NCBI GenBank assembly: GCA_963718915.1
Contig: CAVRAI010000013.1
Coordinates: 450,001-482,000 of the forward strand
DNA from: an uncultured Chloroflexia bacterium
GTDB taxonomy: Bacteria > Chloroflexota > Ktedonobacteria > Ktedonobacterales > JADMIN01
Length of the DNA: 32,000 nt
Direction of reading: 5' to 3'
Part shown: piece by piece, positions 4,246-22,547 of the stretch
How positions within the stretch are numbered: position 1 is the stretch's first letter
Layout of the letters: each line of letters starts with the position of its first letter
Translations under genes and position numbers: made by a program
Notes under the pieces: generated by a model
What the model saw: the letters and a program-made list of their open reading frames with translations, nothing else
Told to the model about the DNA's origin: nothing
Database searches by the model: none

Positions 4246-4359
4246 TCATATAGACGCATAGACCTGAGTAGCAGCGAGCCGTGTCCATGCCGCTTGTCTG
4301 GAGAAGAGCATTCGCACACCATGACGAAGCGGCTGGCCCAGCGTTGGAGGAGAAGAAGC

Positions 4360-4800: not shown

Positions 4801-4841
4801 CGCTCGCGACAACACGCGGAGCATATGGGGCGGTGGTGGCT

Positions 4842-5394: not shown

Positions 5395-5397
5395 GCC

Positions 5398-5820: not shown

Positions 5821-5842
5821 AGCATCTCAAGGAGACATTAGG

Positions 5843-7759
5843 GTGGGCCATATGGTACGGCATGATCTCGCCGCACGCAGCTTGCGACACCTGCGATTCG
5901 CTCACCGGATGATGGCGAGCCAACCGCTGTTGGCGCGTGCCTCCCACATGTACCAGCCGCCCACCGCTGTCTCACTCGATGGCTATCTGCTTCCGATGGG
6001 ACACATTCTACGACGCCTGCCCCTGAACGACTCTACGTGGAGTGGTGCTCGTGCGGAAAGCGGAGTGAGCGCTGCCCCAGCCGCCGACACAGCCCCACCA
6101 GCGGAGACGTTACTAAGGCTTCTCCCCCGGCTGCCCGAAATGCGCGCCGCCGACACCACGAGCGCCGACCCAGAGGTTGACGTAGGGGCGCCCATATCCG
6201 CCACAACCCTCTCTGGCCAAACGCATGCACGTCGCGTTGTCGACAATGCGCCACCAGCGCTGACCACCCCAGCAACCACCACACCGCTAGTGCGCGCCGA
6301 TGGGCTGCGTCCGCGCTCGCGGATCGTCGAACTGCCGGGCACTGTCTCACTCCCCACGGAGGAACCCATCGCCGAAGAACCCAGCGCATCTGACACTCTG
6401 GAGGAACCGCCAGAGGAGGCTCCAGTGAATGCCCACGTGGAGTCTGTGGCAGACGATCAGGTCACTGCCGGAGGTGACCCAGCGCAGCCATTGTTGCTGC
6501 GAGAGGAGCGCAAGGGAGCCGAGGAACCCGCCACTGTCAGCCCGGTATCGGCGCCGATGGCTGCTACTGAGGAAGCGCCACCAACTCCACCTGCCGAACC
6601 AGCCCCCACGCCACGCCGTCGCAGCAAACATACACCAGCGACTCCTCCGCGCGCGTCGGATGTGCTCTTCCCGCCGACCGACGCCGACCGCTCGCCCGCG
6701 GCCTGGCTGGCGCGATTGCAGCATACAGAGAAGCCAGCATCACCTGCTCGACCAGAGTCGCCAGATTCGCTGGTGAAACCGGGTAATGAGCCACCTCCTT
6801 CTACACCTGTCCAGCGTCCAGGTACGCGCAGTATCCGCAAAGGCGCGACCAGCCCACAAGCCTCGAAAGCGCCCGCGCCGCCCACACATACGGCCAGCGC
6901 AACGACTCCATCGCCAGAACGGTCCTCGCCAGAGGAGCAGCCTGCCCTATTGCCGGGCTCGTCGCGAACACTGCTGCATACACTGACGGGCGTCGATCCA
7001 GCGAGTGTGCGCATTTATCGTGGGCCGGTGGCAGAGCGGGCCACTTCCGCTCAAAACGCCGACGCGCTCACCGATGACGGCGCAATTGTGCTTGGCGGTG
7101 GCCGCACGACCGATACGCCGGAGACACTGGGACTGCTGGCGCACGAGCTAACACACATTGCGCAGCGGCGCAGCCCGCGGTTCGTTCCGCCCGTCTCGCA
7201 GACATCGCATCACCAGGAGAGATTCGACGCAGGGACATCCGCGCCTGTGCCACAGGATGTACAACTCGCGGGTTCTCCAGCGGATGAAGAGGCGCTGGCG
7301 ACACAGGTTGAGGCGCGCGTTACCGACGTCGCCAGGGCAAGGGCCACGCCACCAAACGCGCTTCAGCCCGCATTGCTTGTGGAATCCGCGGCTACAGCTC
7401 CACCAGCGGGTAAACTGGCTTCGCGCCTGGCAACACGATCTGTCTGGGGCGATCTACCAGCGCCGTGGGAACCGTTGCCCGACTGGATGACGACACCCAC
7501 TGACTCATCCGTCAGCGCGCCACAGTCAGCGTCTCAGCCACAGCCATCATCGTCGGCGGCTGCTCGCGCGCCATCGGTGGATACTCCCGGCACGCAACGT
7601 GCCGAGCGCGGGCGTTCGTTGCCCGCCGAAACCGAAGAGTCGTCTCCAGCGCATATCCAGGAGGCTGGCAATCCAGAGCCTGACCTGGATCAGCTGGCAC
7701 AACAAGTACACGCGATTCTCAAACGGCGGCTGGCGGCGGAACGGCGGCGCTTCGGCTAG
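5843..7759 (+). CDS. proline/alanine-rich DUF4157 (eCIS core domain, HExxH metallopeptidase-like) protein in the tape-measure position
   Basis: GTG at 5843 lies 8 nt after AAGGAG (5829-5834); an alternative ATG is at 5852. A long low-complexity P/A/T/S/E segment covers about nt 6050-6950. It is followed by SVRIYRGPVAERATSAQNADALTDDGAIVLGGG...LLAHELTHIAQRR, with HELTH at nt 7142-7156, which is the DUF4157 signature as I recall it. Confidence 0.75.
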   Translation: MGHMVRHDLAARSLRHLRFAHRMMASQPLLARASHMYQPPTAVSLDGYLLPMGHILRRLPLNDSTWSGARAESGVSAAPAADTAPPAETLLRLLPRLPEMRAADTTSADPEVDVGAPISATTLSGQTHARRVVDNAPPALTTPATTTPLVRADGLRPRSRIVELPGTVSLPTEEPIAEEPSASDTLEEPPEEAPVNAHVESVADDQVTAGGDPAQPLLLREERKGAEEPATVSPVSAPMAATEEAPPTPPAEPAPTPRRRSKHTPATPPRASDVLFPPTDADRSPAAWLARLQHTEKPASPARPESPDSLVKPGNEPPPSTPVQRPGTRSIRKGATSPQASKAPAPPTHTASATTPSPERSSPEEQPALLPGSSRTLLHTLTGVDPASVRIYRGPVAERATSAQNADALTDDGAIVLGGGRTTDTPETLGLLAHELTHIAQRRSPRFVPPVSQTSHHQERFDAGTSAPVPQDVQLAGSPADEEALATQVEARVTDVARARATPPNALQPALLVESAATAPPAGKLASRLATRSVWGDLPAPWEPLPDWMTTPTDSSVSAPQSASQPQPSSSAAARAPSVDTPGTQRAERGRSLPAETEESSPAHIQEAGNPEPDLDQLAQQVHAILKRRLAAERRRFG

Positions 7760-7805
7760 CACACAGACGTCCCGGCATTTCGGCTCACGCGAAAGGGATC
7801 AGGAG

Positions 7806-8465
7806 ATGGACGGCGCCAGTCTGGCACATGCCAAAATCATCAACCTTGACGGCGGTGGCTCGCCCATCGAGTGCATGTTTAATCCAAAGGAATACTCGTT
7901 CTCCAAGCGAAACCAGTGGACGCCGGGAAAGAGCAAGGGCAGCAACATGCCTCAGCTTGAGTTTGGCGGCGGCCAGCCCGCGACACTCCAGATGCAACTT
8001 TTCTTCGACACCTACGCCGAGGGCAAGGATGTGCGCAAGGAGTACACCGATAGTATCTGGCAATTGATGATGGTTGATCAGAAACTCAAAGACCCCAAGA
8101 ACAAGAAGAGCCGACCACCAAAGGTGCGCTTCCAGTGGGGATCAGCCTGGTCGTTCGATGCTGTCATCATGAGCGTCAACCAGAAGTTCACACTGTTTCT
8201 CTCCGATGGGACGCCGGTGCGGGCGACGCTGGATGTGACGTTCCAGCAGATCAAGGATGCGGCGCTATTTCCTCCCCAGAATCCCACCTCCGGCGGGGTA
8301 GGCGGCGAGCGTGTGTGGACGGTGAACGAGGGTGACACGCTTGCCTGGATTGCCTACAAAGAATACGGTGACTCGAACCAATGGCGACTCATCGCCGACG
8401 CCAACCGGCTTACCCAAGTGCGGCGGCTGATCCCCGGAACAGTGCTGGAGATTCCCAATGCCTGA
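7806..8465 (+). CDS. tube-initiator-like protein with a C-terminal LysM domain (Afp7 / P2 gpX-like)
   Basis: ATG at 7806. N-terminal tube-like region KIINLDGGGSPIECMFNPKEYSFSKRNQW...LQMQLFFDT. C-terminal LysM WTVNEGDTLAWIAYKEYGDSNQWRLIADANRLTQVRRLIPGTVLEIPN. Confidence 0.85.
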   Translation: MDGASLAHAKIINLDGGGSPIECMFNPKEYSFSKRNQWTPGKSKGSNMPQLEFGGGQPATLQMQLFFDTYAEGKDVRKEYTDSIWQLMMVDQKLKDPKNKKSRPPKVRFQWGSAWSFDAVIMSVNQKFTLFLSDGTPVRATLDVTFQQIKDAALFPPQNPTSGGVGGERVWTVNEGDTLAWIAYKEYGDSNQWRLIADANRLTQVRRLIPGTVLEIPNA

Positions 8466-10161
8466 TTCATCCCAGCTTCTCAGCCAGTTCTACGTCAAGC
8501 TCGACGGCGCAGACGTCCCTGAGAATTTCATGCGCGACCTGATGGAGATCACGGTAGAGAACAGCCTGCATCTACCCGACGTGGCGACGCTGATACTCCA
8601 TGACCCGCATCTGCTCTGGATCGACGCCGATAGCCTGGCTCCAGGCAAGGCAGTGAAGGTATCTGCACGTGGCCTCAAGGGTGAGAAAATCATCTTCGAC
8701 GGTGAAATCGTCGAATTAGAGCCAGATTTTCACCCCACAACGCAAATCCTCACGGTCCGCGCATTCGACCGGATGCACCGGCTCTCAATTGGCCAGGCCT
8801 CGCGCACGTTTATGAATGTCACCGATAGCGATCTGGTGCAAAAGCTGGCACAGGAGGTGGGGTTAAAGGCGCAGACGACCGCTACGACGCAAGTGCATCG
8901 GCATGTTTATCAGCATAATCAAACCAACCTGGCGTTTCTGCGCGAGCGGGCGGCGGCCCTCGGCTATCTCCTGTACGTGCAGGGCGATACACTGCATTTC
9001 GAGCCGCCCAAATCGGCAGGCGAGCCGATTCCGCTCGAATGGGGCGTCAACCTGAGTGAATTTCGCCCACGGCTGACGACGACAGGGCAAGCAAGCGAGG
9101 TGACGGTACGCGGCTGGGATCCCGCCACACGGCAGGAAATTGTCGGCCACGCGAAAAAGGGCCAGGGCACGCCACAGGTGGGCGAGAAACAGAGCGGTGG
9201 CGAGCTTGCGCAGGATGCCTTTCATGTGAGCGCACAGAGCCAGGGTGTTATCCGTCCAGTTCGCTCCCAGGCGGAGGCCGATGCGCTGGCGCAGGCGCTG
9301 GCCGATCAGCGTGCCAGCCATTTCATCGAGGCGGACGGCGTTTGCTCCGGCAATCCGGCGGTCATTGCAGGGTCGTCGGTGCAGGTCAGTGCGGTAGGCG
9401 AACGCTTCGGCGGCACATACTTCATCACCAGCACGACGCACGTCTACGCGGAGCAGAGTGGCTACTACACTCGCTTCAGTATCTCTGGCCTGCATCCATC
9501 AACGCTCTTGAGCGTTTTGCAGCCTCAGCATTTCATCGTGGCTACTCCATCGCAACAGGCGATGGGCATCATGGTTGGCATTGTCACCGACAATCAGGAT
9601 CCCAGCAATCAGGGTCGTGTAAAAGTGCGCTATCCAGCGCTATCGCCTGACCATGCCAGCGACTGGGCGCGCGTGATCTCCGCCGGGGCTGGCGCGAAGC
9701 GCGGTATCCTGTTTATACCTGAGGTCAATGACGAGGTGCTGGTAGGCTTCGAGATGGGCGACATTCACCATCCGTATGTGCTTGGTGGTCTGTGGAATGG
9801 CCAGGATCAGCCGCCCTATCCGACAGATAAAACCGTTCAGGGTGGCAAGGTGGCGCTCCGGATTATCCAGTCGCGCGAGGGCCACTACCTGGCCTTTCTG
9901 GAATCCGACGACACGAAGGGTATCGTCATCGTCGACACGAGCGGGAACACGATTGCCTTGAACGCCCAGGATGAACAGCTGGAAATTCGCTGTAGCGGCG
10001 ATGCGCTGATCACGGCAAAAGGTGATATTTCCATCGAGGCAGGGAAAAATCTCACGTTGAAGGCGCCACAGGGGCAGGTTGAGATCCAGGGGCAGACCGG
10101 CGTGAAAGCCGAGAGTAGCGCAAACGTAGATATCAAGGGCACACTCATCAATCTGAACTGA
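8458..10161 (+). CDS. VgrG-like baseplate hub/spike (gpD + gp5 OB-fold + C-terminal beta-helix; Afp8-like)
   Basis: The start overlaps the upstream stop (ATGCCTGA). The gpD-like N-terminal half includes FYVKLDG...LILHDP. The OB-fold segment is GIVTDNQDPSNQGRVKVRYPALS...IPEVNDEVLVGFEMGDIHHPYVLGGLWN. The repetitive C-terminal strands are GNTIALNAQDEQLEIRCSGDALITAKGDISIEAGKNLTLKAPQGQVEIQG. Confidence 0.9.
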   Translation: MPDSSQLLSQFYVKLDGADVPENFMRDLMEITVENSLHLPDVATLILHDPHLLWIDADSLAPGKAVKVSARGLKGEKIIFDGEIVELEPDFHPTTQILTVRAFDRMHRLSIGQASRTFMNVTDSDLVQKLAQEVGLKAQTTATTQVHRHVYQHNQTNLAFLRERAAALGYLLYVQGDTLHFEPPKSAGEPIPLEWGVNLSEFRPRLTTTGQASEVTVRGWDPATRQEIVGHAKKGQGTPQVGEKQSGGELAQDAFHVSAQSQGVIRPVRSQAEADALAQALADQRASHFIEADGVCSGNPAVIAGSSVQVSAVGERFGGTYFITSTTHVYAEQSGYYTRFSISGLHPSTLLSVLQPQHFIVATPSQQAMGIMVGIVTDNQDPSNQGRVKVRYPALSPDHASDWARVISAGAGAKRGILFIPEVNDEVLVGFEMGDIHHPYVLGGLWNGQDQPPYPTDKTVQGGKVALRIIQSREGHYLAFLESDDTKGIVIVDTSGNTIALNAQDEQLEIRCSGDALITAKGDISIEAGKNLTLKAPQGQVEIQGQTGVKAESSANVDIKGTLINLN

Positions 10162-10177
10162 CTGGGAGGAGGGGAGC

Positions 10178-10570
10178 ATGGGACAGCCAGCAGCCAAGCA
10201 GGGCGACCAGATCACGGCGGTAGATACACACATCGTGTTGATTCCTTCTCCTGGCGGTCCGATCCCCACGCCACTGCCACATCCGTTCAACGGCATCATC
10301 GACGGCAACCTGAGCACAAATGTCAACATTATGGGGATGTCCGCGGCGACGGTAGGTAGCACAGCGGATAACACGCCGCCGCATATCCCCCTGGGAGGCC
10401 CGTTCCAAATCCCGCCAACCAATCAGGGACAGATCATGATGGGCAGCGCAACGGTTATGATTAACGGCAAACCAGCGGCGCGCGCGGGTGATACCGCGAT
10501 GACGTGCAATGACCCCGCGCCATTGCCGGTGGGCGCTGTGGTGGCAACGGGAACCGTGATGATCGGCTAA
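10178..10570 (+). CDS. PAAR-domain spike tip protein (Afp10-like)
   Basis: GGAGGAGGGGAG RBS before the ATG. PAAR-like motifs AAKQGDQITAVDTHIV and NGKPAARAGDTAMTCNDP. The gene follows the VgrG-like gene. Confidence 0.85.
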   Translation: MGQPAAKQGDQITAVDTHIVLIPSPGGPIPTPLPHPFNGIIDGNLSTNVNIMGMSAATVGSTADNTPPHIPLGGPFQIPPTNQGQIMMGSATVMINGKPAARAGDTAMTCNDPAPLPVGAVVATGTVMIG

Positions 10571-10589
10571 TACAGGTAGAGGACAGCGT

Positions 10590-10985
10590 ATGCGGGACTT
10601 TCTGGGCGTCGGCTGGGCGTTTCCGGTTGGCGTTGATGCGCGTGGGCGCATTGCGCTGGCACGGCAGGAGCGCGATATCGAAGAGGCGATACGGATCATT
10701 CTGCTGACACCCAAGGGGCAGCGCGTGATGCGCCCGGAGTTTGGCTGCCAGATTCACGATCTGATGTTCGCGCCCAATGACGCCACAACGGCAGGGTTGG
10801 CCGCCTACTACGTCGAGGAGGCGCTAGGTATGTGGGAGCCGCGCATCCATATCAAAGAGGTGAACGCGCGCCCCGACCCTGAAAATCAGGGGCGCCTGCT
10901 CATCGATATCTCGTATGAAATCAAGGCAACGCACGACAGCCGCTCGCTGGTCTTTCCCTTCTATCGAATACCAGAAGAGGCGTGA
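10590..10985 (+). CDS. GPW/gp25 baseplate wedge protein (Afp9-like)
   Basis: GVGWAFPVGVDARGRIALARQERDIEEAIRIILLTPKGQRVMRPEFGCQIHDLMFAPND is typical of the GPW_gp25 family. Confidence 0.9.
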   Translation: MRDFLGVGWAFPVGVDARGRIALARQERDIEEAIRIILLTPKGQRVMRPEFGCQIHDLMFAPNDATTAGLAAYYVEEALGMWEPRIHIKEVNARPDPENQGRLLIDISYEIKATHDSRSLVFPFYRIPEEA

Positions 10986-11033
10986 CCCGCATATCTGGTT
11001 TCCCGCTAGAATGTCCCAAAGGAGATACTCGCG

Positions 11034-13025
11034 ATGCCACTGCCGACACCTTCTCTCGATGATCGCCACTTCCAGGATATTGTGGATCAGGTCAAGAGCA
11101 TGATCCCGCGTTACTGCCCGGAGTGGACCGACCACAACGTCAGCGACCCCGGCGTGACGCTGATCGAACTGTTCGCCTGGATGACCGATATGCTGCTCTA
11201 TCGCGTTAATCAGGTGCCAGACAAAAACTACATCAAATTCCTCGAACTCATTGGCATCCAGCTGGAGTCGCCGCGCGCCGCGCGTGGGCCAGTAACGTTC
11301 TACCTTTCGGCGGCGCAACCCGCTGAGATCAAGATTAGCGCGGGCGCTGAGGTGGCCACTGTCCGCACCGAGACCAATCCGGCGATTGTCTTCAGCACCG
11401 AAGAAGACCTGGTGATCCGCCCACCCGTGCTGACCGGCGCATACACCCGCAACGCCAGCCACAGCGACGCCTCTGCCTGGACAACGCACGATCTCCGTCA
11501 GCTTGGAGTGGCCAGAAATCGTATCGCGCTCTTCCCGGCGAAGCCCGGCCCAGGCGATGCCTTCTATCTCTCGTTCTCCACCGACCACACTCGCCATGTG
11601 CTGGCCATCGCGCTTAATTGTGACCCGGCGGGCGGCGCGGGCGTTGATCCGAACCACCCACCGACGGAATGGGAAGTCTGGCAGGGCGGCCTGACACGCT
11701 GGGCAAAGTGCGAGGTGGAGTATGATGGCACGGGCGGATTCAACCGCGCGGGCGAGATTATTCTGCATGCGCCACAGATGACGCAGGGCGAGTTCCAGGG
11801 AAATCGCGCCTACTGGCTGCGCTGCCAGCTGACCAACGCGCAGAGCGCCGGGAATGGCTATGTCGTCTCGCCGAGCATCTACTCGCTAAAGGTGGAATCG
11901 CGCGGCGGCTCCGTCGGCGCGTTTCACGGATCTACCATTTACAATGAGTTGCTGGGCATTGCCGATGGGACGCCGGGGCAAATGTTCGCGCTGCTGCATG
12001 CGCCCGTGCTGGCGCGTAGCGCTGAGACCGATCACCTCGTTGTCGAGCCACCCGGAGGTCAGCCCGAAAACTGGCACGAAGTGACTGATTTTGGCGACTC
12101 CGCCGCCGACGACAAGAACTACACACTCGATAGCCTGGACGGCGCCATCGCCCTCGGTCCCTCGCTGCTCCAGCCCGACGGCAGCGTCTATCGCTTCGGC
12201 GCCGTGCCCGCGAAGGGCAGCACCCTGACATTCGCACGCTACCAGCACGGCGGTGGCGTGGAAGGCAACGTGCCACGGGGCATGCTGACCGTGCTGAAGA
12301 CCTCCATACCCTATGTGTCTTCGGTCATCAACCGTGCGCCCGCGATTGGCGGACGAGACGCCCAGCGCCTCGACGACGCCATGTTGCGCGCACCCCACAT
12401 GTTACGCACCCGAAGCCGCGCCGTCACCGCCGACGACTACGAGTATCTGGCGACGCAGATCAACGGCGTCGCGCGGGCACGCTGTCTGGCGCCGGGATCC
12501 CAGCCCGGCGACCCATCCGACCCACGACCGGGGCAGGTATTCGTCATCGTGCTGCCGCAGAGCGAAGCGACCAGCGGGCGTATCAGCCAGGATCAGGTGA
12601 CGCTCTCCGCCGAACTGCGCAGCAGTGTCCTTTCCTATCTCGACGACCGCCGCCTGCTCGGAACAGCCCTCGAGGTGCGCGCGCCGCAGTACACCTGGGT
12701 CTCGGTACGAGCAAGGTTGCGACTGCCAGAACGGAGCGACGCTGGGCTAGCGGCTGACGTGCGCGAGCAGGCCGAGGCGGCGCTTTACCGCTATCTCAAT
12801 CCTTATACAGGCGGGCCGCGCGGCGAAGGGTGGCCATTTGGCCGCGATCTGCATCAGTCGGAGATTTTCAGCCTGCTCCAGGCGCTACCGCATGTCGAAT
12901 TTGTCGAAGACGTGCAGATGTCTGTCTCGGACGGCAGCGGAGCAGCCAGGCCCGCGTCCGCCCGGTTGATTCTGCCGCGGCATGGTATCATCTGCTCGGA
13001 TACCCATGAAGTGACGGTGAGCTGA
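11034..13025 (+). CDS. baseplate J / gp6-like wedge protein (Afp11-like)
   Basis: AAAGGAG RBS. N-terminus LDDRHFQDIVDQVKSMIPRYCPEWTDHNVSDPGVTLIELFAWMTDMLLYRVNQVPDKNYIKFLELIG is characteristic of 'putative baseplate assembly protein' J-like families. A size of about 660 aa fits. Confidence 0.9.
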   Translation: MPLPTPSLDDRHFQDIVDQVKSMIPRYCPEWTDHNVSDPGVTLIELFAWMTDMLLYRVNQVPDKNYIKFLELIGIQLESPRAARGPVTFYLSAAQPAEIKISAGAEVATVRTETNPAIVFSTEEDLVIRPPVLTGAYTRNASHSDASAWTTHDLRQLGVARNRIALFPAKPGPGDAFYLSFSTDHTRHVLAIALNCDPAGGAGVDPNHPPTEWEVWQGGLTRWAKCEVEYDGTGGFNRAGEIILHAPQMTQGEFQGNRAYWLRCQLTNAQSAGNGYVVSPSIYSLKVESRGGSVGAFHGSTIYNELLGIADGTPGQMFALLHAPVLARSAETDHLVVEPPGGQPENWHEVTDFGDSAADDKNYTLDSLDGAIALGPSLLQPDGSVYRFGAVPAKGSTLTFARYQHGGGVEGNVPRGMLTVLKTSIPYVSSVINRAPAIGGRDAQRLDDAMLRAPHMLRTRSRAVTADDYEYLATQINGVARARCLAPGSQPGDPSDPRPGQVFVIVLPQSEATSGRISQDQVTLSAELRSSVLSYLDDRRLLGTALEVRAPQYTWVSVRARLRLPERSDAGLAADVREQAEAALYRYLNPYTGGPRGEGWPFGRDLHQSEIFSLLQALPHVEFVEDVQMSVSDGSGAARPASARLILPRHGIICSDTHEVTVS

Positions 13026-13035
13026 GAGGGCTGAC

Positions 13036-13965
13036 ATGGCAGACGAGACGCGACGGCTGATCGTGCAGCGGGGAGACGATCTGGTGCAGACTGTGGCGAT
13101 TGATCGCCCGGTGCTGACCATTGGACGCACCCCAGACAACGACCTCTCGTTGCCCGATACGCTGGTCTCGCGCCACCACGCCGAGCTACGGCTGGAACCT
13201 GAAGGGCTGACGCTGACCGACCTGCATAGCTCAAACGGCGCCTTCGTCGAGGGTGTTCGTCTTCCACCCAATCAGCCGCGCCTGCTCACCAACGGCGCGC
13301 ATATCCAGATTGGGCCGTTTCTGCTCACCTATCAGGTGGGCGAAGATGACAACGGCGCTAGTGGTATCCCCGCCACGGACATGGTAGCGGTCGAGACGCC
13401 AGCGATACAGCCCGTGCAGGCGATGCAGCCGGTGCAGGCACTCGCGCGGACACACACGCATCTGCCGCGGCCAACACTGCCCGCGCCTGTTGCCAGTGGC
13501 CCCGCCAGCATGTATATTGAATCTCTGCCGGTGATTTACGCCGACAACGACTTTCTTGCCCGGTTTCTGTTGCTGTTTCAGAACGTCTGGGAGCCTCTGG
13601 AGCAGCGGCAGGATCATATCGACATGTACTTCGACCCGCGCACCAGTCCGGCGAGTTTCCTGCCGTGGCTGGCAAGTTGGCTCGATCTCTCATTCAATCA
13701 GCACTGGCCCGAGACACGGCGGCGGCGTCTGCTGGCGGAGGCGATTGATCTGTATCGCTGGCGCGGGACACGCTATGGCCTGGTGCGGATGATCGAAGTT
13801 TGCACCGGCATTACCCCTGAAGTCACCGAAAATACGGCGCTACCATACACATTTGATGTGAAAATTGCACTTCCCAAAGACGGGGATATCGATCAGAATC
13901 TCATCGACGAACTGATTCAGGCGCACAAGCCGGCCCACGCCGGATACCGGTTGGAGGTTCTCTGA
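13036..13965 (+). CDS. FHA domain fused to a phage-tail-protein-I / Afp12-like baseplate wedge module
   Basis: FHA signature LTIGRTPDNDLSLPDTLVSRHHAELRLEPEGLTLTDLHSSNGAFVEGVRL at about nt 13100-13330. C-terminal half ESLPVIYADNDFLARFLLLFQNVWEPLEQ...FLPWLASWLDLSFNQHWPE...LYRWRGTRYGLVRMIE resembles the TIGR02242/gpI phage tail domain. Confidence 0.85.
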   Translation: MADETRRLIVQRGDDLVQTVAIDRPVLTIGRTPDNDLSLPDTLVSRHHAELRLEPEGLTLTDLHSSNGAFVEGVRLPPNQPRLLTNGAHIQIGPFLLTYQVGEDDNGASGIPATDMVAVETPAIQPVQAMQPVQALARTHTHLPRPTLPAPVASGPASMYIESLPVIYADNDFLARFLLLFQNVWEPLEQRQDHIDMYFDPRTSPASFLPWLASWLDLSFNQHWPETRRRRLLAEAIDLYRWRGTRYGLVRMIEVCTGITPEVTENTALPYTFDVKIALPKDGDIDQNLIDELIQAHKPAHAGYRLEVL

Positions 13966-16675
13966 TGTCGGAACTGGTCGGGAAGACCATCGGTAACTAC
14001 AAGATTGAGGCGTTGCTTGGCACTGGCGGTATGGGCCAGGTCTATCGCGGCGTCCATCAGTTTCTGAAGGTCGAGCGCGCCGTCAAAGTGATGAACCCCG
14101 GTGTCGCCGCCGATCCCAATTTCCAGGCGCGCTTCCAGCAGGAGGCCCAGGCCGCTGCCGCACTCAATCACCAGAATATCGTCGCAGTGTTCGACTTTGG
14201 CGAGCAGTCCGGCGAGTATTACATGGTGATGGAACTGGTGACCGATGGTTCGCTCCGCACGCTCTTGCGCCAGCGCGCCTCTGGCCAGACCTGGGAGCTT
14301 CCGCTCGGACTGGATCTCATTCGCCAGGCCGCCGAGGGATTGGGCTACGCGAACGGCAAGGGTATGGTCCACCGCGACATCAAGCCAGACAACCTCTTGA
14401 TGGTGAAGTTGAGCGACTCGCCTGCGGGCAAACGCAGTATCTGCTCAAGATTACCGACTTTGGGCTGGCGCGGCTGACCGAAGGGAGCGGCGTGCGCACC
14501 GTCAGCGGCATGGTGATGGGCACTCCGGCCTATATGTCGCCGGAGCAATGCCAGGGCGGCGCGGTTGACGGACGTAGCGATCTCTATTCACTGGGTGTGG
14601 TGCTCTATGAGGTTGCGACAGGTTATCTGCCCTTCCAGGCGACGACGGTGAGCGAGGCGATCTACAAGCATGTCTTTGTGGCTCCTCCGCCACCGCGCCA
14701 GGTTCGTCCTGATCTGCCGCAAGCGCTGGAAGACATTATTCTGCGCTGCCTGGCGAAGAAACCAGAGGGACGCTTTGCCAACGGCGCTGAGCTTGCGCGC
14801 GCTTTGCAAGGTGTCATCGGCCTTCCGGTGCTGACGACGATGGCGCCGATCCGCCCCGGCCAACCAAAGGCCGCGCCGACGCCCGCGACACCGCCCGCCG
14901 CCGCGACTGAGCTTGAGGCGCCTCATGCAGGCGCTCTTCAACCGCCAGCGGCGCCCCCGCTGGGTGGCTACTCCGCGTATCCTCGCATCCGCGTGGTCGA
15001 TCAGGATGGGCGCGTGCTGCAAGTGGTGGAGGTGAATAAGCCCGCGATGGTCGTCGGGCGGCAGCCTGGCAGCGATATTGTGCTCGCGGAGGAGGGCGTC
15101 TCGCGCCAGCATCTGCGCCTTGCCAGAGAAGGCGCGCGCATCTCGGTTACGGATCTTGGCTCTAACAATGGGACATTTCTGGCTGGTAGCCGTCTCTTAC
15201 CCCAGGCGACAACCACCTGGGAATTCGGTCAGGCGCTGCATGTCGGCCCGTATTGGCTGCTCCTCGACGCGCCAACGTCGGCAGCGGCTGCCCCGAACTC
15301 AGCGCAACTCTCCGGAGCGCCCGGCGCGATGCCCGGCGGCTTCCATTCTGCGCCAACGTATGCGGGTTCGGAGGCCATTCCCGCGCCGTACGGGTCGCCT
15401 GTGGCTCCGCCGCTGCCACCAACAACGGAAAGTGGACGCATCCAGGTCGCTGCGGATCAGGAGGCGATAACACTGACTCCCGGCCAATCTGCGATCGTCA
15501 AAGTGACGCTTGCCAACACGGGTACCACCGTTGACCATCTCAGTCTCTACGCCGAAGGTATCCCGCAGTCGTGGGTTCAGGGGCCAGGACGGGAGGTACA
15601 ACTCAATCCGGGCCAGCAGGAGACGACAACTCTGACGATTCAGGCGCCGCGCCTCCCCAATAGCCGCGCGGGGATGTATCCCGTGACGTTACGCGCCCGT
15701 TCGCGCGAAAATCCGGGCGATTCTGGCAGCGCTCCCGTCCTCTGGACTGTCACCCCATTCACCAGTGAGGCGCTCACGCTTCGCCCGACCCGTGTGCGCG
15801 CCCGCCGGACGGCGCGTTTCAGCATGACACTGCAGAACTCCGGCAATGCCCCCGTGCAGTACGCCCTCGCTGGCGAGGATCCCGAAGAGAAACTGCAGTA
15901 CCAGTTTGCACGGCCCACGGTCACTGTGAATCCTGGCGCGGAGTCGTCCGTTCAGACGGTCATTCGCGCGCCCTGGAAACTCTCGGGCCAGCCAGAGATG
16001 CGCGATTTCCGAATTTCAGCGCGCCCCGCCCAAGGGGGGCAGCCCCAGGTAGCCACCGGGCAGATCATGCACGCCAGCCTGTTGCCTGGCTGGTTGCCTC
16101 CACCGCTCCTGGCCCTGATTGTGGCGGGTGTGGTAGTATTAGCATCGCTCTTCGCGACAGGCGTGCTACCAGGCGCGCTGGCGAATATTGGCGCAAGCCC
16201 AACCGCGACCACGTTGAGCGCCGCCACAAGTCCCACCACAGGCGGATCGGCCACACCCACCGTGACGGCAACCGCCACGCCTCAGCCGCTCTTGACGAGC
16301 GTGAACAGCAGCAATCCAGTAACCATTGCCGCCAACTCCTGCTACGATCTCGACGGCGGCGGAGCCGTCTTGAATACCTCAACCGATGCCGATTTCTGCT
16401 GGAACGTGGCCGATCCCACCCGAACGCTCGTCCCAACGAACGCGGCAATGGTTGGTATCTTTGGCGCAACAACCGAACCAGCTTATCAGGATTGTTTGAA
16501 CATGCAAAACCAGGGGCAGGAACCAAGCAATCCAATTGATGGCAGCCCTGACTCGAACAACATACCGAACGGAACATACCTATGTTTCCGCACCAGTTCA
16601 GGGCATACAGCAATGGCGCATATAGATCTGTACGACGTGAATCTCCAGATTGATTACAAGACCTGGAAGTCGTGA
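13965..16675 (+). pseudogene. Hanks-type Ser/Thr protein kinase with FHA domain, two beta-sandwich repeats, TM helix and Cys-containing ectodomain; reading frame broken once (frame 0 to frame 2) between the catalytic loop and the DFG motif
   Basis: The ATG at 13965 overlaps the upstream TGA (TGATG). Kinase motifs GTGGMGQVY, AVKVM and HRDIKPDNLL are in frame 0, which ends at 14477. KITDFGLARL (nt 14447-14476), GTPAYMSPEQ and the rest are in frame 2. Adding one A at AAA 14430-14432 gives ...SPAGKTQYLLKITDFG. The FHA domain is at about 14984-15265 (MVVGRQPGSDIVLAEEGVSRQHLRLAREGARISVTDLGSNNGTF). The TM helix is at about 16091-16171 (PPPLLALIVAGVVVLASLFATGVL). Confidence 0.8.
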
Positions 16676-17025
16676 CATTGCTGACATCGGTTGGCGAGAG
16701 CTGGTGATACAATCGTTGTGGCCCTGGGAGGTAGCGCGCGCATATGTCAGTATGGCATAGGATGCATGTGGTTAGCGCCCTCGATGTACAGGAGGCATTC
16801 CTTGTCCTGGACCTCAGCGCATAGGACTTGTTGCTTACGGCGGTTGATAGGCGGAAAATAACCTGCTATTCTGTAGCGGCATCCCGTAATCACCAACAAC
16901 ATGAAGCGTGATAACTGGCACGTATTATTGTCTATCGGGCGTGCGGCGCATGGACGGCCTTTACTTCTGGAGCGCAGCAGGCTGCTGATACGAGTTACAG
17001 TTCCGGGCTGGAGAGGTGGTATGCG

Positions 17026-17640
17026 ATGTCTGTAACGGTATATCAAGGTATCCACGATATTTTGGCACAGGCACAAGCAACCGCAACAGTCGCAGCAACG
17101 GCAACAGTAGCTCCAACAGTGGCGACAACTAGCACGTCGACTACATCAGGGGGCAGTAGTTTGGGCGCGTTGCAAAACCTGGTCGGGGTTATAATATTCT
17201 TCTTCGTGGCATTTGCCGTGATTTTCTGGCTAAGCCTCGTTTTCTGGACCTGGCGCGATGTCCGTTCCCGCACACAGGACGTTATCTTGCAAGTGACGGC
17301 CACCGGACTCGTCGCGGTCTTCAACATTGGCGGTCTCTTCATCTACCTCATTGTGCGGCCACGCCAGACACTGGCTGAGCTGTACGAGCGCCAGCTTGAG
17401 GAGGAATCGCTCCTGGCCGAGATGACCGAGCGCCAGACATGTCCGACCTGCCATTACCGGGTCGAGGGCGATTTCCAGATCTGCCCATCGTGCGGCACCA
17501 AGCTGCGTCGCCCATGTCCACGCTGCGATCATCTGCTGGAACTCAAGTGGAACGTCTGCCCGTACTGCGGGTACGGCGGCGGCGCGATGGATGGCGGGCG
17601 TGGCGCGCCAGCGAGACAACCCAGCCGCGCGGACAGGTGA
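17026..17640 (+). CDS. membrane protein with two TM helices (PLDc_N-like W..RD motif) and a C-terminal double zinc ribbon
   Basis: Candidate RBS GGAGAGGTGG upstream of the ATG. TM segments are VGVIIFFFVAFAVIFWLSLVFWTWRDV and LVAVFNIGGLFIYLIV. Zinc-ribbon pairs are CPTCHY..CPSCG and CPRCDH..CPYCG. Confidence 0.7.
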   Translation: MSVTVYQGIHDILAQAQATATVAATATVAPTVATTSTSTTSGGSSLGALQNLVGVIIFFFVAFAVIFWLSLVFWTWRDVRSRTQDVILQVTATGLVAVFNIGGLFIYLIVRPRQTLAELYERQLEEESLLAEMTERQTCPTCHYRVEGDFQICPSCGTKLRRPCPRCDHLLELKWNVCPYCGYGGGAMDGGRGAPARQPSRADR

Positions 17641-17680
17641 CGAAGCCCGACGATTCCGCGCGCAACAACGAGCACAATGA

Positions 17681-17710
17681 CAGCCCTCCACGATGGAGGG
17701 CTGCTTTGCT
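17681..17710 (+). terminator. candidate rho-independent terminator after the zinc-ribbon membrane protein gene
   Basis: Perfect 9-bp stem CAGCCCTCC / GGAGGGCTG with loop ACGAT at 17681-17703, followed by CTTTGCT, which is a weak T tract. Confidence 0.5.
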
Positions 17711-17869
17711 GTGGAGAACCTTTTGATACCCGATTAGGCTGGGTCGTTGCCGTTGGGGTGGGCCGACCGCAGCCTTCAGGCTGCGGCTAATTTCCCAGCC
17801 CCATTCGCCGTAGCGTTTACGCTACGGCCTGCCCCCGAAGGACAACAATCCAAACGAAATTGGTATGAC

Positions 17870-18475
17870 TCATCCCACCGGTGCGAATTCGTCGAGAATC
17901 TGCGGCTCGGCCCCCGCCGACAGCATCTCGTTGAGCGTGCGCTCCCCATCGCCCGCCTGTACATCCACCGGGCGTGACGCATCGATCAACACTGAGGTCT
18001 CGAAACCGCTTTTGAGAGCGTCGAGCACCGTGGCACGCACACAGTAGTCGGTGGCAAGACCACCCACGTAGACATGGCGCACCCCGCGCGCATGCAACGC
18101 ATCCACCAGAGACTGTCCATCAGGCAACACGGCCTCCAGCGCCGAATAGCCCTGATCTTCCTCGCTCATCCCCTTCGAAACGATCACTGTGCTCGGCGGC
18201 AGGCGAAGTTCTGGATGGAACTCCGCACCGGGCGTCCCCTGAACGCAGTGTGGCGGCCACGGGCCACCCTGGGCGGCAAAGTGGCGCGTCTGCTCCGGAT
18301 GCCAGTCGCGGCTGGCAAAGATGGGCATGCCCGCGTCGGCGGCCCGCGCCATATACTCGTTGAGGATGGGAACCACCACATGTCCCTCTGGCACTGCGAG
18401 CGAGCCACCAGGGCAGAAATCGTTCTGTACATCGACGATGATGAGCGCATCGGTCATCAGTTCGCTCCTTTGCAC
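17870..18475 (-). CDS. pncA: nicotinamidase/pyrazinamidase (isochorismatase family)
   Basis: ALIIVDVQNDFCPGGSLAVPEG...ASRDWHP...YVGGLATDYCV contains the catalytic Asp/Lys/Cys context of PncA. It lies immediately downstream of an NrtR-type regulator. Confidence 0.85.
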   Translation of the reverse strand: MQRSELMTDALIIVDVQNDFCPGGSLAVPEGHVVVPILNEYMARAADAGMPIFASRDWHPEQTRHFAAQGGPWPPHCVQGTPGAEFHPELRLPPSTVIVSKGMSEEDQGYSALEAVLPDGQSLVDALHARGVRHVYVGGLATDYCVRATVLDALKSGFETSVLIDASRPVDVQAGDGERTLNEMLSAGAEPQILDEFAPVG

Positions 18476-18496
18476 AGGCTGCCAGGAATGCGCCAG

Positions 18497-19231
18497 CTAT
18501 TTGTCCGCCCCTGGATTGAAGCGGTAGAGTGCGGCAGGCCGGTGTTGTCCAGCTTTGCGCGTCTCAGGAATCTGTTCGAGGATCCCGGTCGTGAGTACTT
18601 TCTTGCGAAAGTTGCGCTTATCGAGCGGGCGATTGAGGATTGCCTCGTAGACCTCCTGCAGCTCGCTCAGTGTGAAAGACGGCGCGAGCAACTGGAAGCC
18701 GATGGTGGTATATTCCAGCTTGCTGCGCAACCGCTGGCGGGTATAATCGAGAATATTGTCGTGATCAAAGGCAAGCGCCGGGTGCCCATATGCCGGAAAC
18801 CACTGGGCGTCGGCGGCGTCATCACCAGCGCGCAGATGGAGTTGATCCGCCCGCAGCAGCGCGTAATACACCACAGTGATGACACGTGTGCGTGGGTCGC
18901 GCCCCGGATCGCCGAATGTGTAGAGCTGCTCAAGATAGACATCGCTCACGCCAGTCTCCTCGCTCAGCTCGCGCCGGGCCGAGTCTTCGAGCGACTCATT
19001 CGGCTCGACGAAGCCGCCAGGAATCGCCCACATGCCCTCGAAGGGCCAGTGGCGGCGGCGCACCAGCAGCACCTCCAGCCGACGCTCGCGCACCGTGAGG
19101 ATGACGACATCCACCGTAACCGACGGCCGCTCATACGCGCTCGGATCGTAGGTCTCCTCGCGCTGACGGGACTCCTCCGGCGTGTCAATGCGCCCCGGTG
19201 TGGAGGTTGTGTTATCCGCGCTGGTTGACAC
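18497..19231 (-). CDS. nrtR: NrtR-type Nudix-related transcriptional regulator (Nudix domain plus C-terminal winged helix)
   Basis: The preferred start is GTG at 19231, with AGGAG 7 nt upstream on the minus strand; the ORF-track TTG at 19270 is less likely. The Nudix box GGFVEPNESLEDSARRELSEETGV is intact. The C-terminus FTLSELQEVYEAILNRPLDKRNFRKKV is typical of the NrtR wHTH domain. Confidence 0.8.
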   Translation of the reverse strand: MSTSADNTTSTPGRIDTPEESRQREETYDPSAYERPSVTVDVVILTVRERRLEVLLVRRRHWPFEGMWAIPGGFVEPNESLEDSARRELSEETGVSDVYLEQLYTFGDPGRDPRTRVITVVYYALLRADQLHLRAGDDAADAQWFPAYGHPALAFDHDNILDYTRQRLRSKLEYTTIGFQLLAPSFTLSELQEVYEAILNRPLDKRNFRKKVLTTGILEQIPETRKAGQHRPAALYRFNPGADK

Positions 19232-19462
19232 TGGACGTCTCCTGATTCCATGACTTATGAGCCAGAGCAAAACAGCTGTGGCACTTCAATTATACGTTAT
19301 AGTCAGATGGCAGGTGTTCGTTCGCGAATGACATTCACTTTGGCGTACAACAGCGGCAGAGCGGTGTTACCTTCATGGCCACAACTCGTCTGAAAGGAAA
19401 GGCGCAGTCGCGCGCGTTCTGGCAAGCGATCTGTGTTGAGCAGGAAGTGCTGAGTGGGTGAG

Positions 19463-21064
19463 ATGGATCAACCAGAAGAGCATGAAGAGAACGCGCGTAA
19501 CACTTTCTTCGAGCAGTTGCTGACGGTCAGGATGCCAACCGCCGGGCCAGCGAATCAAGCGCCATCCTCGCAGAATGCAATTGCCGATATGGACACGGCG
19601 AAGCAGACAGCCCCTCCGATTGGCCAGATACCTATCGAGCAGATACCCACCGCGCGCATTCAAGCGACGCATCCGCCGGTCATGTCCGCCGCGATGCATC
19701 GCGCAAGCGAAACGGCCCAATTCGACCTGGATCGGATGACCGGAGTGCCCGCAGCGGCTATCGAGACGCCCGCCATCACTGCTCCACCAATAGCGCTAAT
19801 GGATGGCGCACAAGCGCGTTCTACCCGCCATCGTCGGCGAAGGATCACCATCGTCGCGGTGGCTATCTTCCTGGTTGTCGCGGCCCTCACGCCGGTGCTG
19901 TATCAACTCTCGACCTCACACTTCCAGCGCGCGAGCCATACCAGCGGCTTCGCACAGGGAGCCAATCCGCCCCCTGGATGGCATCCGCAGGACTGGGCGC
20001 CGCTGGCGCGTCAGCAGGCTGAACTGAACTACGTGAATCAACTCATCGCGCACATGACGCTCGATCAGGAAATCGGCCAGATGATCATGCTCGGTTTCCT
20101 GGATACGCAGATGTCGCCAACACTTGCCTACACCATCAAACAGTACCACCTTGGCTCGGTGGTACTCTACGCCTGGAACATCACAGGAGCGGATCAGGTG
20201 AAGCAACTGACAGCGCAGATGCAGAGCCAGGCTGATCTGCCGCTCTTTGTGGCGACTGATCAGGAGGGCGGCAGCGTTAACCGACTCCAGGCGGTAGACG
20301 GACCACTGCCCGGCGCCTGGGCGATGGGCGCAAACGGTACCACAGACTATGCGCAGCAGCGTGGGGAATACGACGCGCAGCAGCTCTACAGTCTCGGCAT
20401 CAACGTCAACTTCGCGCCAGTGGTGGATGTCGCCAACACGTCTGGCGGCGATCTTGGCGGGCGCACGTTTGGCACGACAGCCGATCAGGTGACAAAGCTG
20501 GCGGGAGCGTATCTGAATGGTCTGCAATCCAGCGGCCATGTGATAGGAACCCTGAAACACTTTCCTGGACTCGGCGACGTGCCCACCGACCCACACGCAT
20601 CGCTGTATACCCTCAATCGCAGCAAGGCCGACCTCGAACGCATCGACTGGGCGCCCTATAAAGCGCTGCTTGCTACCGGCCAGGTCCAGATGATTATGTC
20701 CACGCACGTCGTGCTCTCGGCAATCGATCCAACTCGACCGGCGTCGCTCTCCGAGCCAGTGCTGACAGGGATTCTGCGCGACGAGTTGGGCTACCAGGGT
20801 GTCATCGTCACCGATGGCATCTATATGGGCGCACTCACCTCACACTACTCCTTCGACCAGATCATTCTCGATGCGGTCAAGGCTGGCAACGATATCATCT
20901 GCAGCACCTATTCCATCGAATCTACCGCCGAGACCGTGCGCGTGCTGAAAGCTGCGGTGCAGAGTGGCGACATCTCGAAATCGCGCATAGATGACTCGGT
21001 CAGACGCATTCTGCTGCTGAAACTGCATGATGGTGTGCTGACCATGCCACAGAGTCAAGGTTGA
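19463..21064 (+). CDS. glycoside hydrolase family 3 beta-N-acetylhexosaminidase (NagZ-like) with an N-terminal disordered region and a TM anchor
   Basis: TM segment ITIVAVAIFLVVAALTPVLY. GH3 motifs EIGQMIMLGF, ATDQEGGSVNRL and KHFPGLGDVPTDPH. Confidence 0.85.
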   Translation: MDQPEEHEENARNTFFEQLLTVRMPTAGPANQAPSSQNAIADMDTAKQTAPPIGQIPIEQIPTARIQATHPPVMSAAMHRASETAQFDLDRMTGVPAAAIETPAITAPPIALMDGAQARSTRHRRRRITIVAVAIFLVVAALTPVLYQLSTSHFQRASHTSGFAQGANPPPGWHPQDWAPLARQQAELNYVNQLIAHMTLDQEIGQMIMLGFLDTQMSPTLAYTIKQYHLGSVVLYAWNITGADQVKQLTAQMQSQADLPLFVATDQEGGSVNRLQAVDGPLPGAWAMGANGTTDYAQQRGEYDAQQLYSLGINVNFAPVVDVANTSGGDLGGRTFGTTADQVTKLAGAYLNGLQSSGHVIGTLKHFPGLGDVPTDPHASLYTLNRSKADLERIDWAPYKALLATGQVQMIMSTHVVLSAIDPTRPASLSEPVLTGILRDELGYQGVIVTDGIYMGALTSHYSFDQIILDAVKAGNDIICSTYSIESTAETVRVLKAAVQSGDISKSRIDDSVRRILLLKLHDGVLTMPQSQG

Positions 21065-21150
21065 TGGCGGACCCGCGGATGTGCGACACTGCGACCGATT
21101 GCCTGCAACCTGGCAGGTACATGGCGCTGTAGCGAGTGAAGAGGCGATCC

Positions 21151-21855
21151 ATGGCCAACGAAGCCGCAGATGCCCAGGCATATCCGATGCGGGGAATACC
21201 ACAGCCAACACGCGAGCAGGCGCTGACACTGCCGCAGGTCCATATCTCGCACCATCCCGTCATCGCGCATAAGATGACGCTGCTCCGCGACAAACGGACG
21301 GCGCCGCATGAGTTTTATCGCATCGTGCGCGAACTAGGGGCGCTGCTAGCCTATGAGTCCACCGCCGACCTAAAGCTGGAACCCGTGCGGATCGAGACGC
21401 CGATAGAGCAGACGTTTGGGAGCGCGTTGGCGGGTGGCGTGGGCATTGTGCCGATCTTGCGCGCTGGTCTGGGTCTGGCTGAGGGCTTCCGCGAGGTGTT
21501 GCCCGATGCGGCGGTCTGGCACCTGGGTCTGCGCAGGGATGAGCGGACACTGGAACCCATCGAGTACTACAATCAACTGGCGCGATCCAGCAATCTCCAG
21601 GTATGCTTCTCAGTAGATCCGATGCTGGCGACAGGGGGATCTGCGATTGATGCGCTCAACATTCTCAAGCGCTACGGCGTTCCTCACCTACGCTATGTAG
21701 CCTTGATTGGCGCGCCGTATGGTCTGCTGAAGTTGCGCCAGGCGCATCCCGACGTGCCGATATTTTTGGCGGCGCTCGACGAGCGGCTTGACGACCGCGG
21801 CTTCATCTGTCCCGGTCTCGGCGATGCGGGTGATCGTCAATTCGGCACACTCTAA
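21151..21855 (+). CDS. upp: uracil phosphoribosyltransferase
   Basis: HHPVIAHKMTLLRDKRT, FYRIVRELGALLAYE, VPILRAGLGL, DPMLATGGSA and ICPGLGDAGDRQFGT are the conserved UPRTase blocks. The start could also be the ATG at 21187. Confidence 0.85.
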   Translation: MANEAADAQAYPMRGIPQPTREQALTLPQVHISHHPVIAHKMTLLRDKRTAPHEFYRIVRELGALLAYESTADLKLEPVRIETPIEQTFGSALAGGVGIVPILRAGLGLAEGFREVLPDAAVWHLGLRRDERTLEPIEYYNQLARSSNLQVCFSVDPMLATGGSAIDALNILKRYGVPHLRYVALIGAPYGLLKLRQAHPDVPIFLAALDERLDDRGFICPGLGDAGDRQFGTL

Positions 21856-21954
21856 TAACACCAGGACAAGAGAGCCACGACCCGCCTGTGCATCGCATAA
21901 GGCGTGAAAGCGTCGGCATCGCGGTATTGACTGCACGCGAGACAGACAGGCAGA

Positions 21955-22496
21955 ATGGACAGGCGAACCCCAGTGGATGACCAGCGACTATCTCCAGACG
22001 ATCAACCACCCATTACGAGTAGCGGTGAACAACGGCATGACGTGCATGACGTGCATGACGCGGATGAAGGAACCGCGATGACCCCAGATATGGAGGCTGA
22101 GCTTCCCGAGGCGGGAGCCGTTCCTCCTGGCTACGACTGGCCGACGCATGGCGGCTACCTGGGCTGCCTGCTGGGGATCCTGCCCGCCTGTCTGGTCGCC
22201 GGTTTTCTGGGTTCGACATTCGTCGCGTGGCCCTGGTTCAACGGCAAAGCGACCTGTCGCCAGTCGTCTCAATCGTCCTGATTGTTGCGCTCTTCGTCGT
22301 GTGTGTGTACGGCTTTGGGCGCATCGGGTGGGTGCTCGGCCGCCGATTCTATCGCAAATATCCCCGTTCGGAGCCAACCTGGGGCGAAGACGAGAGCGCG
22401 GCGGACGTGGCGAACGCTGTACACGGAACGAACGCGCGTCGAGAAGGATTGCACGATACGACGTCAAATCAGACCGCGAGACAGACTACGCCGTAG
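21955..22496 (+). pseudogene. hypothetical two-TM membrane protein apparently split by one frameshift
   Basis: ORF 21955-22281 ends ...LGCLLGILPACLVAGFLGSTFVAWPWFNGK and then runs out of frame. The overlapping ORF in frame 0 continues DLSPVVSIVLIVALFVVCVYGFGRIGWVLGRRFYRKY. One extra A at AAA 22246-22248 joins them. Confidence 0.35.
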
Positions 22497-22547
22497 TGCC
22501 CGCCAACACATGCCGCATCGCTGCCAACTCCTGGCGATGCAACACCG

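Follow-up and report, generated by a model that had tools for sequence, protein, structure and literature searches.

In the H1 type VI secretion system (T6SS) of Pseudomonas aeruginosa and in Agrobacterium, the threonine phosphorylation pathway consists of the PpkA kinase, Fha1/TagH and the PppA phosphatase. FHA domains of the GarA type dock on phosphothreonine (pThr) of the PknB activation loop. To our knowledge, no kinase or FHA domain has been described for the contractile injection systems (CIS) Afp, PVC and AlgoCIS. The CIS of Streptomyces coelicolor (CIS-Sc) is cytoplasmic, lacks tail fibres and has two Cis11 and one Cis12 per wedge (PMC12237407). Its contraction needs CisA, a bitopic membrane protein (N-terminus in, C-terminus out) that is encoded directly after the baseplate genes and acts in membrane association and firing; contact between CisA and the particle is unproven (PMC12237407). 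For fibre-less cytoplasmic CIS, both the route to the membrane and the trigger of contraction are still sought, with CisA as the sole known factor (PMC12237407). In this study, a CIS operon was analysed in a stretch of 32,000 nucleotides (nt; hereafter the window) from an uncultured Chloroflexia bacterium (contig CAVRAI010000013.1, positions 450,001 to 482,000). The analysis centres on two adjoining genes of this operon: a fusion of an FHA domain to the wedge protein Cis12, and a transmembrane Ser/Thr kinase that carries an FHA domain of its own.

Analysis of these two genes revealed a writer, namely a membrane kinase in the adaptor slot, and two readers, namely the two FHA domains; their functional residues are intact and the set is genetically welded to a peripheral wedge protein. 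Judged from sequence, the module is probably a phospho-dependent membrane adaptor or trigger of a Streptomyces-type CIS. A more specific proposal, which is put forward tentatively, is that a large clade of Streptomyces-type CIS, cytoplasmic by analogy, has a hard-wired pThr handshake in which a receptor kinase with a hypervariable ectodomain responds to a cue from outside or from the envelope, autophosphorylates, captures the six baseplate FHA domains, and docks and fires the particle.

The open reading frame (ORF) 13036-13965 encodes a protein of 309 amino acids (aa) with matches to Pfam FHA (aa 28-93, E 3.2e-19), Pfam Tail_P2_I (aa 184-299, E 2.9e-18) and NCBIfam TIGR02242 (E 1e-30). In the AlphaFold2 (AF2) model of the fusion, built with 31 homologues, an FHA sandwich (aa 1-102), whose predicted local distance difference test score (pLDDT) is above 90, is joined through a disordered linker (aa 104-146) to a gpI-like alpha/beta domain (aa 150-309). 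Foldseek placed the FHA domain nearest to mycobacterial GarA/OdhI (TM-score about 0.84-0.9, 34-36% identity), and the C-terminal domain fell on 9gtp, the S. coelicolor CIS baseplate. The 9gtp Cis12 (190 aa) is without an FHA domain and matched the gpI domain of the fusion only (E 1.7e-21). Comparison of the pThr-contact residues in the 31 homologues revealed G30, R31, R46, H48 and G68 to be invariant and S45 and N67 to be at least 90% conserved; the Cis12 domain thus has the FHA fold together with the conserved Gly-Arg, Ser-x-x-His and Asn-Gly that define the FHA domain (PF00498). The Cis12 stop codon overlaps the kinase ATG in the sequence TGATG at 13963-13967. The original prediction, made from the DNA letters, had described the wedge gene as an FHA domain ahead of a phage-tail-protein-I module and had noted this stop/start overlap; Pfam, NCBIfam, AF2 and Foldseek agree on the former, the overlap is correct, and the FHA, Pkinase and TIGR02242 profiles that it named as checks all match.

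The kinase protein, read across a frame break that is treated below, is laid out as a Pkinase domain, a Pro/Thr-rich linker, an FHA domain, two immunoglobulin (Ig)-like domains, one transmembrane (TM) helix, a Thr/Ser-rich linker and a four-Cys ectodomain. It is a PknB-like bitopic receptor kinase, whose kinase, FHA and Ig-like domains would lie in the cytoplasm. PknB/PknA are the nearest relatives of the kinase domain (E 2e-50). The 59 members of the kinase family that were compared retain the catalytic Lys and Asn as well as the HRD, DFG and PE motifs, and an activation-loop threonine, T179, which aligns with T171 of PknB, is present in 75%. In the internal FHA domain G33, S48, H51, N70 and G71 are invariant, with R34 and R49 at least 90% conserved. 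A second AF2 model, that of the kinase, shows the FHA domain, then a disordered linker leading to a pair of Ig-like sandwiches (pLDDT above 90), and after these the TM helix and a disordered Thr/Ser-rich linker; the C-terminal four-Cys domain is beta-rich and of low confidence. The predicted order of FHA, two beta-sandwiches, TM helix, Thr/Ser linker and four-Cys domain is upheld by Pfam and AF2. Foldseek of the Ig-like tandem returned generic Ig/ASH-like matches only (HYDIN, intimin) and nothing informative. A single TM helix follows the Ig region in nearly all full-length family members. The ectodomain is not conserved: its length ranges from about 130 to 570 aa, and it belongs to cupredoxin-like, SGL/Vgb-lyase-like, beta-propeller and other families.

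Database searches found 737 homologues of the FHA-Cis12 fusion at E<=1e-5 in a 90%-clustered database, with both domains in almost all of the best 120. In a 50%-clustered library the family comprises 793 clusters at E<=1e-30; among the top 150, nearly every one aligns over its whole length. Genomes with the pairing number in the hundreds. A genome scan seeded on gpI-domain peptides alone yielded 67 loci, 63 of them with FHA-Cis12. The 67 loci come from Chloroflexota (Ktedonobacterales, Thermogemmatispora, Thermomicrobiales, Chloroflexales, Roseiflexus), Deinococcota (Calidithermus, Meiothermus), Gemmatimonadaceae, Acidobacteriota and further phyla. Among the 63 FHA-Cis12 loci a kinase domain starts within 150 nt in 47 and lies 1.5-6 kb downstream in 13; two are on contigs too short to judge and one is without a kinase, so that the linkage noted at this one locus holds in 60 of the 61 judgeable cases. 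Since it does so across phyla, chance co-transcription does not explain the pairing. In the loci with the longer distance a separate FHA-Ig-TM protein or a methyltransferase intervenes, or there is a tandem of two to three kinases. Sampling from the kinase side gave the same picture: P0171, P0240 and P0169, the last from Roseiflexus castenholzii, are all downstream of FHA-Cis12 in CIS operons (three of three). FHA-less Cis12 goes with no kinase, as seen in S. coelicolor and in the acidobacterial loci L066 and L067. Calidithermus keeps the FHA-Cis12/kinase pair without recognisable baseplate genes upstream.

Several of these loci have features of their own. At L050 (Calidithermus chliarophilus DSM 9957, 1-14811), as also at L047 and L049, four ORFs without Pfam matches precede the pair instead of recognisable VgrG, gp25 and Baseplate_J genes, and the other strand carries an Afp15-like AAA gene. 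At L074 (R. castenholzii, 7284-22761), L051, L070 and L071 a protein-methyltransferase gene stands between FHA-Cis12 and the kinases, and these loci have two to three tandem kinases of the kinase-FHA-Ig-TM type plus extra kinase-less FHA-Ig proteins. L065 (Chloroflexales, 12349-13716) has nSTAND2 and Trans_reg_C after a short kinase-FHA protein. At L067 (metagenome-assembled genome of Acidobacteria, 9989-12495) the protein encoded after the FHA-less Cis12 has 679 aa; it resembles the kinase in its Ig-like region and has a single TM helix but lacks a kinase domain. The FHA-like N-terminus of this protein is degenerate, having lost the GR, SxxH and NG motifs; the protein possibly represents the adaptor in an ancestral or a decayed state.

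Comparison with solved structures placed the machine among CIS. The sheath matches Streptomyces CIS 8bky/9gtp and 8bl4/9gts over its full length (aa 1-513, E 7.5e-167), whereas the sheaths of Afp, PVC, AlgoCIS and tCIS match in the C-terminal part only (Afp/Pvc aa about 275-508, E 1e-50). Likewise, Cis11 matches the 9gtp Cis11 over its full length (aa 1-661, E 2.5e-148) and the AlgoCIS Cis11 in the C-terminal part only (E 9e-10). No tail-fibre gene was found among the operon ORFs and their Pfam matches. The kinase gene occupies the slot of CisA in Streptomyces, which is the tail-fibre slot of conventional extracellular CIS (eCIS), and the topology of its product is also CisA-like. By these sequence matches the machine is a Streptomyces-type (type IId-like), tail-fibre-less CIS in a Ktedonobacterales-like Chloroflexota genome. 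The particle had been called Afp/PVC-type; because of the sheath, Cis11 and Cis12 matches and the position and topology of the kinase, this label is wrong and Streptomyces-type is right; apart from the class of CIS, the earlier interpretation points in the right direction. Positions 13-16675 of the plus strand form a single CIS operon, from the AAA+ ATPase through the kinase. The features of this operon and the gene beyond it are as follows.

13-1590, plus strand: AAA+ ATPase, Afp15/Cis15-like (Pfam AAA, E 5.4e-26), with CDC48-family similarity and not ClpV; its 5' end is possibly outside the window.
1538-2437, plus strand: cap/terminator protein with Pvc16_N and CarboxypepD_reg domains (Pfam Pvc16_N, E 7.1e-31).
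2701-4245, plus strand: contractile sheath of Streptomyces type (Pfam Phage_sheath_1 and Phage_sheath_1C; full-length match to 8bky/9gtp, E 7.5e-167).
4294-4800, plus strand: inner tube protein, gp19 family (Pfam Phage_T4_gp19, E 6.3e-41).
4833-5210, plus strand: small conserved CIS protein with no Pfam match, 93% identical to the product of the syntenic 122-aa gene of relative L003.
5398-5820, plus strand: second tube-family protein, gp19 family (Pfam Phage_T4_gp19, E 1e-48).
5759-7759, plus strand: eCIS_core (DUF4157) protein of 666 aa (single Pfam eCIS_core domain, aa 398-472, E 1.2e-13).
7806-8465, plus strand: tube-initiator/baseplate hub protein, CIS_tube, Afp7-like (Pfam CIS_CIS_tube family, E 1.1e-31); the start was set from relatives, whose 219-aa homologues map to 7806-8462 (tblastn).
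8458-10161, plus strand: VgrG-like spike (Pfam Phage_base_V, E 2.3e-27; Phage_GPD).
10178-10570, plus strand: PAAR spike tip (Pfam PAAR_motif, E 1.7e-16).
10590-10985, plus strand: gp25-like baseplate wedge protein (Pfam GPW_gp25, E 1.6e-26).
11034-13025, plus strand: Baseplate J/Cis11 wedge protein (Pfam Baseplate_J; TIGR02243, E 3.9e-141; full-length match to 9gtp Cis11, E 2.5e-148).
13036-13965, plus strand: FHA-Cis12 fusion (Pfam, NCBIfam, AF2, Foldseek), with the FHA domain at about 13036-13341, the disordered linker at about 13345-13473 and the gpI/Cis12 wedge domain at about 13483-13962.
13965-14432, plus strand: N-terminal part of the kinase (G-loop, catalytic Lys, HRD/N) up to the frameshift (Pkinase profile positions 1-132, E 1.3e-24).
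14431-14433, plus strand: position at which 1 nt is missing and the kinase frame breaks (alignments with L001, L003 and L005-L008).
14423-16675, plus strand: remainder of the kinase in the other frame (Pfam, AF2, Foldseek, TM scan; by tblastn aa 154-905 of the intact L001 kinase map to 14423-16672), with the DFG..SPE C-lobe, the second FHA domain at about 14984-15268, two Ig-like domains at about 15437-16076, the TM helix at about 16100-16157 and the four-Cys ectodomain at about 16337-16672.
17026-17640, plus strand: membrane protein whose N-terminus is rich in Thr and Ala, with two TM helices and, at the C-terminus, a double zinc ribbon (Pfam DZR, E 2.5e-11).

The eCIS_core protein encoded at 5759-7759 is a likely candidate cargo or effector. 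Its C-terminal part alone aligns to L003 (50% identity), and the N-terminal part is variable even among close relatives. In relative L072 an eCIS_core plus Endonuclease_NS protein lies downstream of the kinases. The variable DUF4157 proteins, and not the kinase, are likely the cargo; a role of the kinase itself as cargo or toxin is ruled out by its TM helix, its conserved architecture and its translational coupling to Cis12. The zinc-ribbon membrane protein at 17026-17640, whose N-terminal sequence reads TATATVAATATVAPTVATTSTSTT, is possibly an accessory protein and a candidate substrate or partner of the kinase; its gene stands next to the kinase in close relatives L001-L010 only. Further downstream the window holds isochorismatase and NUDIX/NrtR genes (minus strand), GH3, UPRTase and LytR genes, an ABC transporter and an IS4/5 transposase. 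The last, an IS4/5-family DDE transposase at 29107-29979, adjoins a phage-integrase fragment at 28705-29073 (minus strand), about 12 kb past the CIS operon.

The proposed membrane docking would proceed as follows. A cue sensed by the ectodomain would activate the kinase, which would phosphorylate threonines in its own activation loop or Pro/Thr-rich linker, in a component of the CIS, or in both; the sites in the activation loop or linker are proposed by analogy with PknB and GarA. The flexibly tethered FHA domains of Cis12, presumably one per wedge, would bind these pThr sites, and the cytoplasmic particle would thereby be docked at the membrane or licensed to fire there.

Several findings weigh against this proposal. 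There is no universally conserved threonine in the Cis12 linker: T147, in 'PRPT', occurs in 54% of the homologues, which is too few to mark it as the pThr ligand. As the original prediction had observed for the window, no PP2C phosphatase is present among the Pfam matches of its ORFs, nor was one found within 10 kb at about 75 loci. A phmmer search with PstP, a query that does match Pfam PP2C_2, returned nothing at E<10 in 1.24 Mb from 75 loci, at the sensitivity of a single sequence. Reversibility is left unexplained because no PP2C is linked. At one FHA-Cis12 locus, L064 (Chloroflexales, 9891-12788), a STAND NTPase (PNP_UDP-nSTAND1-WD40) replaces the kinase. A cytoplasmic location of the particle is predicted only by similarity to Streptomyces. 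Finally, the kinase is not one open gene in the window: past HRDIKPDNLL, ORF 13965-14477 leaves the frame and terminates.

The DFG..SPE region and all later parts of the kinase lie in another frame (14423-16675). The kinase had been described as a Hanks kinase with all catalytic motifs; the motifs are indeed all present, but a 1-nt deletion, which had been overlooked, distributes them over two frames. Alignment with five close relatives showed that the window lacks a single base at about 14432, in the stretch from HRD to DFG, that the loss is not compensated, and that no close relative shares it; the window reads GGCAA-ACG where the relatives have GGCAAGACG or GGCAAATCG. The kinases of close relatives are intact (893-905 aa), and their ATG overlaps the Cis12 stop. 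With one base added, the window encodes a kinase of 903 aa, which shares about 90% identity with the L001 kinase (intact, 905 aa). Searching the relatives' genes against the window by tblastn detected other uncompensated 1-nt deletions relative to close relatives: one in the MarR gene, at 22557, and two in a 235-aa zinc-ribbon gene, at about 23142 and at 23251, with both genes on the minus strand. A 155-aa hypothetical gene is also broken, by a frame change near 22230. Because several single-base deletions occur in unrelated conserved genes without other decay, an assembly error is likely, and the comparison with relatives makes the break at about 14432 probably an assembly artefact. This suggests that the assembly of the window is deletion-biased, as for example one from long reads only. 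An exact-sequence look-up of the window's Cis12, for a second assembly to compare, returned no record. A programmed frameshift at 14432 is ruled out: there is no slippery heptamer and the relatives all read through. If the deletion were real, the module would be defunct in this genome and the kinase a pseudogene or a kinase-dead FHA-Ig-TM fragment. In favour of this, the break does stand in the given sequence and is absent from all relatives, but the 727 codons past it show no stops or decay and retain 90% identity to the relatives, and no fewer than three further single-base deletions lie within 10 kb in conserved genes unrelated to the kinase, a pattern that is the signature of assembly error. 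A defunct module is thus very improbable.

The main rival to membrane docking is an assembly checkpoint like that of T6SS Fha1. In the H1-T6SS, Fha1 phosphorylation permits assembly; here the kinase would mark Cis12 or another baseplate part and the FHA domain would read the mark to permit assembly of the baseplate or sheath, with the membrane site for sensing only. The writer and reader set is equally conserved under such a checkpoint, the disordered Cis12 linker contains threonine (the 'PRPT' of about half of the homologues), and the kinase's own FHA domain could read phosphorylated Cis12. Against this, Cis12 has no conserved phospho-acceptor, and the position of the kinase gene and the topology of its product are like those of CisA, whose part is in membrane association and firing and not in assembly. 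Furthermore, some loci keep the Ig-TM module without a kinase, which suggests that the membrane-adaptor role is primary. On this evidence we regard a checkpoint as unlikely. Still less credence is given to the idea that the FHA domains are phospho-independent scaffolds, like the YscD-type folds of the type III secretion system, and that the kinase is a general envelope or stress kinase merely co-transcribed with them. Both FHA domains, in Cis12 and in the kinase, do match the Yop-YscD_cpl profile as well, no phosphatase is linked, and kinase-less FHA-Ig-TM paralogues exist. The canonical pThr-contact residues (R, S, H, N) are, however, invariant or nearly so in both FHA domains, the same residues have decayed at the one kinase-less locus with FHA-less Cis12, and the near-complete kinase linkage described above spans phyla.

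The individual parts of the pairing have left traces in an earlier survey. In the supplement of Geller et al. 2021, FHA is listed as enriched in eCIS loci (odds ratio 5.6, false discovery rate 4.6e-13, 35 occurrences in four phyla) under the label 'Regulatory/Shell', and the Roseiflexus RS-1 genes RoseRS_1667 (FHA plus Tail_P2_I) and RoseRS_1669/1670 (Pkinase plus FHA) are recorded; the main text of that study is silent on the FHA enrichment. A search of the full-text literature for FHA and kinase with contractile systems, which covered open papers while subscription-only ones were outside its reach, returned T6SS papers only, and the eCIS surveys, the CisA paper, the S. davawensis CIS paper and the polymorphic-toxin survey contain no discussion of the FHA-kinase pairing. 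The co-occurrence of FHA and kinase in eCIS loci is therefore catalogued but unanalysed. This qualifies the novelty that the original prediction had guardedly suggested: no paper was found that discusses an FHA wedge with a kinase, but the co-occurrence itself had already been tabulated.

The family supplies a defined writer (the PknB-like kinase), two readers (the FHA domains) and a point of attachment to the baseplate (Cis12), which makes phospho-dependent membrane docking directly testable. Cultured carriers exist, namely Thermogemmatispora spp., R. castenholzii, Roseiflexus RS-1 and C. chliarophilus. If the proposal is true, gating of contractile machines by Ser/Thr kinases and FHA domains evolved at least two times, and the variable ectodomains would be a catalogue of firing cues. 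The module would then be an independently evolved counterpart of T6SS threonine phosphorylation and the first defined route from signal to firing for a CIS other than the T6SS.

Comparison with known systems shows that the locus shares the core set of sheath, tube, VgrG, PAAR, gp25, gpJ, gpI, AAA+ ATPase and cap with Afp, PVC and AlgoCIS; unlike it, those systems have tail fibres (Afp13) and a Cis11/12 fusion or extension. With T6SS PpkA/Fha1 it has in common a transmembrane Hanks kinase and an FHA reader tied to a contractile machine, here as read from sequence and in the T6SS as post-translational control. It differs in that the FHA domain is fused to a structural wedge protein instead of being part of a separate TagH, in that the kinase has its own FHA and Ig-like domains, and in the lack of a linked PP2C. 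No T6SS families, including those of the core genes (TssB/C sheath, ClpV, TssJLM), were matched; the sheath is of the Phage_sheath_1 type and the ATPase is CDC48-like. The TagH/Fha1 family TIGR03354 scored 58.4 bits against a cut-off of 120.25. The phospho-switch of the T6SS, which had been invoked for this locus, thus stands as an analogy, while neither T6SS core genes nor the phosphatase accompany it, and the resemblance to PpkA/Fha1/PppA is convergence and not membership or homology. The parts themselves resemble mycobacterial PknB with GarA/OdhI/FhaA, the kinase being nearest to PknB/PknA and the Cis12 FHA domain to GarA/OdhI; unlike in that system, there are no PASTA domains and the FHA reader sits in a phage-tail baseplate and not in a metabolic regulator. 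The likeness to CIS-Sc lies in the homology of sheath, Cis11 and Cis12 wedge, in the absence of fibres and in the bitopic membrane protein encoded after the baseplate genes. Streptomyces Cis12 is without an FHA domain, whereas an FHA reader has been gained here, and where CisA consists of an unstructured cytoplasmic region and a substrate-binding-like ectodomain, the membrane protein of this locus has a PknB-like kinase, an FHA domain and two Ig-like domains.

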